DNA from: Escherichia phage LHE83
Strand: one strand, 5' to 3'
DNA: 64,000 bases
Sequence record: OQ561750
Shown: in pieces, positions 21,966-53,403 of the stretch
Layout of the letters: every line of letters starts with the position of its first letter
Numbering within the stretch: the first letter of the stretch is position 1
Made by a program: the position numbers and the translations under genes
The notes under the pieces: generated by a model
Told to the model about the DNA's origin: nothing
The model's input: the letters and a program-made list of their open reading frames with translations, nothing else
Databases searched by the model: none

Positions 21966-22039
21966 GGCCCTGTAGCTCAATGGTTAGCAGCAGTCCCCTC
22001 ATAAGGGAAAGGTTACCGGTTCAAATCCGGTCTGGGCCA
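21966..22039 (+). tRNA. tRNA with anticodon CAU (Met, or Ile2-type reading AUA as in the T4 tRNA-Ile)
   Basis: 74-nt cloverleaf: 7-bp acceptor stem (one U-U mismatch), anticodon loop CUCAUAA, T-arm ACCGG-TTCAAAT-CCGGT; position matches T4 tRNA cluster. Confidence 0.65.
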
Positions 22040-22080: not shown

Positions 22081-22746
22081 ATGTTCCATTACACTTATAA
22101 AATAACAAACAAAATTAATAATAAAATCTATATAGGCGCCCATTCAACCGAAAATTTGAATGATGCATATTTTGGTTCTGGTAAACTCTTAAAAAGGGCC
22201 CAGGCCAAATACGGTATAGAAAATTTCTCTAAAGAAATATTAGAGTTCTTTGACGATAAAACCTCTATGTTTGAGTCAGAAAAGAATATTGTGACTAAAG
22301 AGTTTTTAAAGCGCCCCGATGTTTATAATTTGAAATTAGGTGGTGAAGGTGGTTGGGACCATTTAAACACTGAAGAATATTTAGATAAAAAGAAAGAAGC
22401 TTCCTTAAAAGGAGTTGCCGCTTTTAAAACCAGATTTGAGAACGACCCAGACCTTAAAGAAAAATATCGTAAAATGGGTTCAGAAAAGTTTAAACAACTT
22501 TGGGATAATCCTAAGTATAGAGAGAAATTTTCAAATACTAAATCTTTCTTGGGTAAGACCCATTCAGATGAAACCAAAAATAAAATGAAAGAATCTCACG
22601 CCAGAAATAAACATCAACAAGGTGAAAATAATTCCGGATACGGAAAAATGTGGATTCATTCTTTAGAAGAAAAAGTTTCTAAACGTATTAACAAAACGGA
22701 TATTATTCCTGAAGGTTGGAATAAAGGTCGTAAAATAAAATTTTGA
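22081..22746 (+). CDS. segB: GIY-YIG homing endonuclease, SegB-like, inserted in tRNA cluster
   Basis: 221 aa; N-terminal HYTYKITN...NKIYIGAHS...YFGSGK GIY-YIG pattern; basic NUMOD-like C-terminal repeats; same location as T4 segB. Confidence 0.6.
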   Translation: MFHYTYKITNKINNKIYIGAHSTENLNDAYFGSGKLLKRAQAKYGIENFSKEILEFFDDKTSMFESEKNIVTKEFLKRPDVYNLKLGGEGGWDHLNTEEYLDKKKEASLKGVAAFKTRFENDPDLKEKYRKMGSEKFKQLWDNPKYREKFSNTKSFLGKTHSDETKNKMKESHARNKHQQGENNSGYGKMWIHSLEEKVSKRINKTDIIPEGWNKGRKIKF

Positions 22747-22751
22747 ATTAC

Positions 22752-22826
22752 GTCCCGCTGGTGTAATGGATAGCATACGATCCTTCTAAGTTTGCGGTCC
22801 TGGTTCGATCCCAGGGCGGGATACCA
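22752..22826 (+). tRNA. tRNA-Arg (anticodon UCU), CCA encoded
   Basis: 75 nt; 7-bp acceptor stem, anticodon loop CUUCUAA, T-arm CCTGG-TTCGATC-CCAGG, 3-prime ACCA. Confidence 0.7.
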
Positions 22827-51598: not shown

Positions 51599-51861
51599 TT
51601 AAAATAAAACTCTCTAATTACGATAAAAACTTGGAAATGATTGCTATGAAAGAAGAACTCTTGAATGATGTCCGCTTTACAGGTTATGCAGTTCAATTTA
51701 ATGGTGATGGGACTCTCCAGATTGAGGGTGACCACTTTATCATCGAATACGAATTTAAACAGTATTGGCTGTATGCAAAAGATGAGGTTGGCGGTGTTGA
51801 TTACGTCGACGAGTTCGATAACCTAGATGACGCATTGGAAGGAGCTCGATTCCTACAATGA
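51595..51861 (+). CDS. Hypothetical acidic protein (88 aa)
   Basis: ATGA overlap. Confidence 0.4.
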   Translation: MIKIKLSNYDKNLEMIAMKEELLNDVRFTGYAVQFNGDGTLQIEGDHFIIEYEFKQYWLYAKDEVGGVDYVDEFDNLDDALEGARFLQ

Positions 51862-52121
51862 AACCCATATCCACCACCCTCGCCTACGAAGGTCTCGGAT
51901 TTTTCTTAATAGATAACCGTATGGATGTTGAGTTTGTTTGTGGTGAGACTTCTTTAGTATGGAAGTCTCATATTTCCAAATACAACCATCGCGAATATCC
52001 AGGTCTTTTTAAAGAATTTTGTGGATATATGTCTGAACATGGATGTACTGATACAATTTCTTATTCCGAGTTCACACAAATCCTTGAAACCGTATTTCAG
52101 GCTTATTGCTTACTCCGTTGA
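51858..52121 (+). CDS. Hypothetical protein (87 aa)
   Basis: ATGA overlap. Confidence 0.4.
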   Translation: MKPISTTLAYEGLGFFLIDNRMDVEFVCGETSLVWKSHISKYNHREYPGLFKEFCGYMSEHGCTDTISYSEFTQILETVFQAYCLLR

Positions 52122-52178
52122 TGCTTTAAGCCAATTGGTATATAATAGATTCATTATTTAAATTAAAGATTAATCATT

Positions 52179-52874
52179 ATGCACTATTGTTATATGACCA
52201 CTATAAAATCCGAAAATGATACTTATTACTATTTCGGTAAACACACCGGATTTATAGATGACGGGTATGTCGGTAGTGGCAAATTCGTAGAAGATGCTAA
52301 GGCCTCAGGGAAATGCTCTTTTAATATAGAGGCCTTATGTTATTTTGAGACAAGTGAGCTTGCTTTTGAATTTGAAGAGCTTTTGGTAGAAAATGCCATG
52401 TCCGAAATAACTAACTGCGTCAATATGAAACCTGGTGGTATAGGTGGTTATGCTCCTCCGACACCGGAAAGACTTGAAGAACAGTCTAAAGAAGTTACCG
52501 AACGCTGGCAGGACCCTGAATATAAAGAGCGGGTTTCCAACTCTATTAAAAAGTCTTGGGAAAATGAAGAGCATCGAGAAATGATGCGTCGAATCCATAA
52601 AGAGTATAATGCTAATCCTGAAGTTAGAGAGGCCAAAAGTAAAAAGAACAAAGAATATTACTCTATAGAGAATTATTCCAAGTTTGCTAAAAATCCAACA
52701 TATGTATTATATGATGAGTTCCATGAACTTTGGATTAAGGAAGGACGCCCTAGTTATTCTAAATTCTGGCGCAAATGCTGTGAACTATGTTATCCATATA
52801 CGATAAATAATTTTAGACCACTAGTTGATAGGTTTAAGAGGGCTTATGAATCAGGTGAAGTTAACAAAAAATAA
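52179..52874 (+). CDS. GIY-YIG-type homing endonuclease-like protein (Seg-like), paralog of the 22081 gene
   Basis: HYCYMTT...YYYFGKH...YVGSGK...NMKPGGIGG parallels HYTYKITN...IYIGAHS...YFGSGK...NLKLGGEGG of the segB-like gene; basic C-terminus; 3-prime end overlaps gp55 start. Confidence 0.5.
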
Positions 52875-53403
52875 TTATGTAAATAACAAGGAGCTTCTTA
52901 AAGCTATTACAAGTTGGAAGCAGGAATTATATGCTAACACCGACCCTAATAAAATCATTAGACAAAATGATACTATAGGATTGGCTATTATGCTTATAGC
53001 AGAAGGCCTCAGCAAGCGTTTCAACTTCTCAGGATATACCCAATCTTGGCGGCAGGAAATGATAGCTGATGGAATCGAAGCTTCGATTAAAGGTCTTCAC
53101 AATTTCGACGAAACAAAATACGACAACCCACATGCATATATCACTATGGCTTGTTTTAATGCCTTCGTTCAGCGTATCAAAAAAGAACGTAAAGAAATGG
53201 CAAAGAAATATAGCTACTTCGTCCATAATGTCTATGACAGTAATGATGACGACATGGTAGGTATTGCAGATGAAACCTTTATCCAAGATATCTACGACAA
53301 AATGACTCAGTATGAAACCTCTTTAACTAAAGCACCAGGGTCTGATAAGAGTGCCGAACCTAAAGTTGGTGAACTGGATTTTTTATATGGAACATCAGAT
53401 TAA
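52846..53403 (+). CDS. 55: Late-transcription sigma factor gp55
   Basis: 185 aa from internal ATG; [12 protein letters not shown]...[30 protein letters not shown]...[10 protein letters not shown] closely matches T4 gp55. Confidence 0.85.

Follow-up and report, generated by a model that had tools for sequence, protein, structure and literature searches.

A SegF-like GIY-YIG homing endonuclease gene overlapping late sigma factor gene 55 in a Dhakavirus, with a predicted target inside gene 55

The gene 55 locus and its inserted cassette

The window, by which we mean the whole 64,000-nucleotide stretch of Escherichia phage LHE83 (record OQ561750) that was analysed, belongs to a JS98-like T4-type phage of the genus Dhakavirus. 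Its plus strand carries gene 49, the 55.x genes, gene 55, the a-gt.x genes, gene 47 and gene 46 in this order. A 2.7-kb stretch around the homing endonuclease gene (HEG) described here is 98.9% identical to Escherichia phage vB_EcoM_FB (FB) and 98.6% identical to Salmonella phage vB_SalD_ABTNLS3 (ABTNLS3). The HEG is a stand-alone reading frame located between a conserved DUF7200 gene and gene 55 and shares their orientation; in JS98, IME08, MX01, VR20 and T4 these two genes are adjacent. The locus contains the following features.

51858–52121, plus strand: conserved upstream gene, DUF7200, RB69 orf072c-like (Pfam PF23830, E 2e-31; annotations of JS98 and IME08)
52118–52146, plus strand: promoter-like site TTGATG-17-TATAAT upstream of the HEG (pattern match only)
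52130–53064, plus strand: mobile cassette of ~935 bp, delimited by comparison
52179–52874, plus strand: Seg-type (SegF-like) GIY-YIG HEG, 231 aa, ATG start
52179–52454, plus strand: GIY-YIG catalytic domain, residues 1–92
52464–52688, plus strand: helical linker with repeated W-x-D/N-P-E-Y/H-K/R-like units, residues ~96–170
52695–52853, plus strand: C-terminal three-helix homeodomain/Myb-like helix-turn-helix, residues ~173–225, common to T4 SegF
52788–52790, plus strand: private Gly204Cys (GGT to TGT), from comparison of copies
52836–52842, plus strand: Shine-Dalgarno-like AAGAGGG for gene 55, inside HEG codons K-R-A (sequence; kept in the 67% identical lineage)
52846–52874, plus strand: 29-nt overlap of the HEG and gene 55 (reading frames and alignment)
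52846–53403, plus strand: gene 55, late sigma factor gp55, 185 aa
52849–52869, plus strand: recoded gene 55 codons 2–8, MNQVKLTK versus MT(K/E)IKLTK in HEG-less phages (alignment)
52875–53064, plus strand: foreign gene 55 tract, nt 30–219 of the gene, 190 nt (alignment, blastn)
53050–53052, plus strand: gene 55 codon 69, CGG (Arg) here and AAG/AAA (Lys) in the HEG-less phages compared (alignment; predicted immunity substitution)

The first-pass annotation had described a 231-codon frame starting with ATG on the plus strand, its end shared over 29 nt with the late sigma factor gene; this description holds throughout. The downstream gene matches PHROG 234, 'late sigma transcription factor', at E 7e-68, and its ATG at 52846 lines up with the start codon of gene 55 in relatives without the HEG. 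The HEG ends at a TAA that is read, in another frame, across the conserved gene 55 codons AAA-AAT-AAT. In the GenBank record of FB, gene 55 (L001 3157–3705) starts at a GTG 9 nt downstream of this ATG, which would shorten the overlap to 20 nt and the product to 182 aa. The same record gives the DUF7200 gene (L001 2223–2423) as 201 nt, compared with 264 nt in the window, and both annotated starts are probably start-codon miscalls.

Comparison with relatives, proposed earlier as a way to find the empty site, reveals it in the HEG-less JS98, IME08 and MX01, which have a native gene 55 leader and native first codons. The cassette stands in place of this leader of about 66 bp and of codons 1–8, and consists of its own leader, the HEG, recoded gene 55 codons 1–8 and the foreign gene 55 tract. 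The replaced ~90 bp are near-identical in MX01, IME08 and JS98 although the flanking coding DNA is 25% different, and gene 55 codons 2–8 are altered in all three HEG lineages described below. On the right, the cassette ends at about gene 55 nt ~219. On the left, the alignment shows that the final ~50 nt and the stop codon of the DUF7200 gene are common to two different left-flank haplotypes and thus serve as a left homology arm; both haplotypes switch to the cassette straight after GATGCTTTAA.

The inserted DNA also bears on how gene 55 may be expressed. A MotA-box-like TGCTTTA (52122–52128, by pattern match) overlaps the promoter-like site and lies 12 nt before its TATAAT (52141–52146). The same 12-nt spacing is found in the HEG cassette of the 67% identical lineage and in the HEG-less Gaprivervirus VR20 (L044 ~850–900), whereas it is 21 nt in HEG-less Dhakaviruses (L002 2420–2470); a promoter with different spacing may thus have come in with the cassette. 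Near the locus no late promoter TATAAATA was found, the plus strand showed no sigma-70-like promoter inside the HEG frame, and no plus-strand terminator turned up. Gene 55 expression in carriers must rely on predicted signals, namely the promoter-like site at 52118–52146 and the AAGAGGG at 52836–52842. A MotA-like box inside the frame, TTTGCTAAA near 52685, was spotted by eye and is not claimed as a gene 55 promoter. RNA structures hiding the start sites of the HEG or gene 55 were sought and nothing notable appeared (z-scores +0.9, -0.8 and -1.2). Operator-like similarity between the region upstream of the HEG and the predicted target, of the kind involved in I-TevI autorepression, fell below shuffled controls.

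The neighbourhood varies in other ways too. Some Dhakavirus backgrounds have an extra ORF of ~82 aa between the 55.2 and 55.1 homologs (IME08, L003 ~1900–2140; L010 2776–3024; L011 808–1056), which accounts for length differences of ~240 bp among matching records. One HEG-carrying contig (L009 2751–3560) has an additional 269-aa ORF in the interval between a-gt.2 and gene 47, where the window has no such gene; it is without a Pfam match and may be another mobile insert.

The encoded GIY-YIG protein

We read the protein as a free-standing GIY-YIG homing endonuclease of SegF-like build, with an activity predicted from its sequence. The catalytic domain has the three-stranded sheet and flanking helices of the GIY-YIG superfamily, with its GIY and YIG strands (strands at residues 2–10, 15–23 and 47–56; helices at 35–43 and 59–76). 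Its conserved residues Y5, Y18, G20, H22, E66 and N82 include equivalents of I-TevI Y6, Y17, G19, E75 and N90, that is, the Tyr, the Tyr-x-Gly, the metal-binding Glu and the structural Asn of the superfamily. Further matches in the fold comparison were the GIY-YIG nucleases PD-T4-3, T4 EndoII, UvrC and Eco29kI, and the C-terminus matched homeodomain/Myb-type helix-turn-helix domains; this C-terminal domain is presumed to bind DNA.

The expected GIY-YIG profile match was obtained from one source and failed to appear in others. PHROG 314, 'homing endonuclease', matches at E 7.5e-20, while Pfam and NCBIfam gave no significant match to the full-length protein or its halves, their profiles including PF01541, PF19835 and TIGR01453. 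The N-terminal 100 aa reach E 0.45 and 11.3 bits against PF01541, for which the cutoff is 22.6. Active T4 SegF, taken as a control, is likewise without a Pfam match at E ≤ 1, so that the miss reflects the profile and not the protein; Pfam overlooks the SegF-like branch of GIY-YIG enzymes. The family profile retrieved nothing from PDB sequences.

An exhaustive phmmer search of 1.84 billion representatives yielded 2433 relatives at E ≤ 0.001, just one of them below 1e-30. SegE_GIY-YIG (PF19835) matches 18 of 42 aligned relatives, GIY-YIG (PF01541) 14 and NUMOD3 (PF07460) 13; unlike these 13 and the segB-like paralog, the window protein has no NUMOD3 detected by Pfam in its linker. Ten residues are invariant in the 42-relative alignment (Y18, G20, H22, Y30, G32, S33, G34, E66, N82 and G86), and the window protein has all ten. 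The first-pass annotation took YYYFGKH for a degenerate first motif. It is in fact the second (YIG) motif, the GIY equivalent being HYCYM at residues 2–6, and it is not degenerate: YFGKH is seen in several relatives and every family-invariant residue is kept.

The closest characterised homolog is T4 SegF. An alignment with the T4 Seg proteins had been suggested as a check, and SegF proved collinear from end to end (BLASTP: 25% identity across 228 aa, E 5e-16), with tblastn covering 94% of the query. In the alignment both proteins share the variant motif GKH...D-x-Y-x-GSGK...E...N..GGxGG and the type of C-terminal domain; both genes are free-standing and adjoin a conserved gene in shared orientation, and Pfam is blind to both. 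They differ in location, segF lying between genes 56 and soc, where its product cuts gene 56 of T2, and the window HEG lying at gene 55. Moreover, segF overlaps its upstream gene by 11 bp, whereas the window HEG overlaps the downstream gene 55 by 29 nt and provides its predicted ribosome-binding site. I-TevI (PDB 1LN0) is more remote, at 14% identity to the window protein; it is intron-encoded and cuts within 25 bp of its insertion site, whereas the window HEG is free-standing. The helix segment around I-TevI Arg27 is replaced by H22-x5-D28-G-Y30-x-GSG in the whole subfamily, SegF included, and no Arg27 counterpart is identifiable.

Within the window, the previously noted paralogy with a segB-like gene (22081–22746) is borne out at 31% identity over 148 aa (E 5e-14), spanning the N-terminal domain and the first linker repeats, with the HYxY / Y(I/F)GxH / GSGK / GGxGG pattern aligned. 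The segB-like gene matches PF01541 (E 1.6e-5) and NUMOD3, and its C-terminal half is unrelated to the window HEG. Like T4 segB it sits in a tRNA cluster, between tRNA-Met (21966–22039) and tRNA-Arg (22752–22826).

Comparison of the window HEG with the 67% identical lineage gives pN 0.21 and pS 0.75, at which synonymous sites are saturated, and the catalytic third is the most constrained part (pN 0.16). This difference between pN and pS excludes pseudogene decay at the level of the whole family. The window's own copy has one peculiarity: Gly204 is kept in FB, in eight metagenomic copies and in the 67% and 53% identical lineages, and Cys is found in the window copy alone. A sequencing error could account for the change, or it could be a mutation that impairs function; lying in the presumed DNA-binding domain, it may have impaired this particular copy.

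Distribution of the insert and the linked gene 55 tract

The insert is present in 2 of 696 matching phage records, FB and ABTNLS3, and is thus not conserved at this site across relatives. Both records annotate it as a hypothetical protein, which can now be named; in tblastn, the next-best phage protein is 31% identical. Scans of IMG/VR and JGI metagenomes for further copies returned distant relatives only, at ≤49% identity over part of the protein. A protein with two residue differences from the window's is encoded on sixteen contigs from ENA assemblies and Logan assemblies of read runs, eight of which were retrieved and examined.

These copies occur on two kinds of left flank, which are ~25% different over 300 bp. 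The window, FB, L007 and L008 are of MX01/JS98 type, and L009, L010, L011, L013 and L014 are of IME08 type. Across the two types the cassettes differ at ≤15 of 696 nt, and the junction lies at the cassette edge. Near-identical cassettes on different backgrounds indicate a recent spread. Overall, the comparison supports the earlier reading of the gene as a Seg-like, free-standing and mobile GIY-YIG HEG. The base composition of the insert shows no difference from its flanks.

Two diverged lineages occupy the same site and likewise overlap gene 55. One (P0002; here v2, the window's lineage being v1) is 67% identical and resides in a host background that shares 95% identity with Gapriverviruses (VR20, VR26 and others) whose GenBank members are without the HEG. 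The other (P0004) is 53% identical, and its host's nearest relatives are just ~76% identical. Across the three lineages pS is 0.70–0.75 for the HEG and ~0.57 for the host gene 55.

The cassette continues into gene 55. Against IME08, the 190-nt tract is 76.8% identical with pS 0.74, compared with ~99% and pS 0.06 over gene 55 nt 220–540. Synonymous saturation within one tract of a gene that is elsewhere 99% identical is a signature of gene conversion. By blastn the tract is found at ≥99% in six records representing four phages: FB and ABTNLS3 with the HEG, and MX01 and vB_EcoM_005 without it, the next-best match being 81% identical. MX01 (L002 2489–3046) and vB_EcoM_005 (L050) have the complete 190-nt tract, yet a normal leader and normal codons 1–8. 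The nine loci with v1, in FB and on eight metagenome contigs, all have the whole tract, despite differences downstream. A corresponding pattern arises independently in the 67% identical lineage compared with VR20, with 39 mismatches in gene 55 nt 1–228 and 5 in the next 690 nt. Comparison of these natural alleles thus shows what we interpret as co-conversion of flanking gene 55 DNA with the HEG, in two genera and on different backgrounds.

Predicted target, mechanism and alternatives

An alignment of the first 300 nt of gene 55 comprised MX01, the three alleles linked to a HEG and, from six genera, eight alleles without one. Only two of the 300 columns, nt 205 and 206, separate the three HEG-linked from the eight HEG-less alleles (AA to CG, Lys69Arg). 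Both columns fall where the region is most conserved (FSGYTQSW[K/R]QEM in the protein), and they precede each of the two tract ends by 15–25 nt. Taking SegF and SegG as models, we infer a recognition or cleavage site near gene 55 nt ~190–230, around codon 69. Among IMG/VR contigs, 35 have AAR at this codon, none of them with the HEG, and the one with CGN is vB_EcoM_005. Lys is present in about 95 of 120 gp55 cluster representatives, Arg in 8.

The idea that Arg69 is exclusive to carriers had to be rejected, as it also occurs in the HEG-less MX01, vB_EcoM_005 and L086 and in distant gp55 lineages with unrelated upstream neighbours. In L086 (149–709) the site is more altered still, reading CGA AGT. 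These three HEG-less Arg69 phages may have survived attack through resistance, or may have lost a HEG. Arg at the equivalent gp55 position is also seen in a remote T4-like lineage, in which a 489-aa protein (L087 1491–2960; weak DEAD-helicase match) takes the place of the small 55.x genes upstream of gene 55.

The reading we favour, with a probability of roughly 0.7, is that of a free-standing SegF-like HEG in the gene 55 transcription unit that homes by cleaving gene 55 near codon 69, with co-conversion of the DNA in between. During mixed infection the enzyme would cut both DNA strands of a HEG-less phage in its gene 55 region, and repair would copy the donor's cassette, comprising tract, recoded start and HEG. 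Since the break would lie some 200 bp from the HEG, as with SegF and SegG, everything between the two would be co-converted. The change from Lys69 to Arg (AAG to CGG) would make carriers immune, and a recombinant joining the HEG to a sensitive site would cut itself, so that the tract stays linked; such self-cutting would explain a linked tract that ends just past codon 69 in two genera. MX01, vB_EcoM_005 and L086 would be resistant HEG-less products of the process.

In its mode of working the element most resembles T4 SegG, whose gene lies between genes 59 and 32 and, like the window HEG, just ahead of an essential gene. The cleavage sites of free-standing T4 endonucleases lie hundreds of bp away from the genes that encode them; segG embeds gene 32 promoters, and SegG cuts inside gene 32 at a distance, with co-conversion of its 5' part (PMC2988022). 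Host expression signals appear to be embedded or displaced in both cases, and the 5' part of the neighbouring gene co-converted; for SegG these features were demonstrated by crosses and cleavage mapping, and for the window HEG they are read from natural variants.

The same HEG could instead target its insertion point, the conserved gene 55 leader and first codons, with the 190-nt tract and Arg69 as mere hitchhikers. Several observations suit this proposal: the near-identity of the replaced ~90 bp in MX01, IME08 and JS98 despite 25% flank divergence would make a good target, and gene 55 codons 2–8 are altered in all three HEG lineages. In addition, the HEG-less MX01 is identical to a carrier outside the replaced segment, so that the site must lie within that segment if MX01 is sensitive. 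Arg69 could indeed be a variant hitchhiking from the ancestral cassette, and the right end of the tract coincides with the start of a very conserved gene 55 stretch, where any recombination would tend to resolve. Yet an insertion-point target leaves unexplained why the tract ends ~15–25 nt past codon 69 in two genera and why nt 205–206 are the sole fully discriminating columns, and the characterised free-standing T4 endonucleases cut far from their own gene. We consider it unlikely.

A decaying, inactive relic, its frame kept as the carrier of the gene 55 promoter-like site and ribosome-binding site so that deletion would be lethal, is highly improbable. The gene 55 Shine-Dalgarno sequence does lie inside the frame, and according to a review embedded host signals favour retention, but this sequence needs the last ~40 nt only and cannot explain the conservation of 690 nt. 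The absent Pfam and NCBIfam matches, the missing counterpart of the canonical Arg and the private Gly204Cys of the window copy would fit a relic, though active SegF has the same variant motif and is also without Pfam matches. Against decay stand the intact invariant residues, strong purifying selection that is strongest in the catalytic domain, and the near-identical cassettes on different backgrounds, which indicate recent spread. Scarcely credible is an old, non-mobile insertion passed on by vertical descent in several Tevenvirinae lineages with repeated loss, its mosaicism being ordinary phage recombination: three diverged lineages at one locus and a HEG pS of the same order as that of host gene 55 would fit, but not the occurrence in only 2 of 696 GenBank relatives, the cassettes ≤15 of 696 nt apart on ~25% divergent left flanks with the junction at the cassette edge, or the gene-conversion signature of the synonymously saturated tract. 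None of the alternatives, be it a leader or start target, a hitchhiking Arg69, a tract end set by the conserved stretch, or old descent with loss, changes the classification of the gene as a SegF-like HEG.

Building on the homing mechanism near codon 69, a bolder interpretation is that the selfish endonuclease decides which sequence an essential transcription factor may have. It would recognise a near-invariant gene 55 stretch, oblige carriers to have Arg69 and make the HEG and the ~190-nt tract inseparable; HEG-less Arg69 phages would be survivors of past attacks, and the element would be hard to lose because it has replaced the gene 55 leader and ribosome-binding site. We offer this tentatively, at somewhat less than even odds.

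A full-text literature search found no published homing endonuclease at or next to gene 55, and the list in the 2010 T4 review contains none; the window HEG thus adds an uncharacterised Seg lineage at a locus for which no published homing endonuclease was found. Natural variants yield a sharp prediction for it, a cleavage site ~200 bp inside the late sigma factor gene together with a two-nucleotide immunity change. The locus offers a test case for how free-standing endonucleases keep their linkage to a distant immune site, and for how such an element may drive localized gene conversion in an essential gene and become entrenched by taking over host expression signals.
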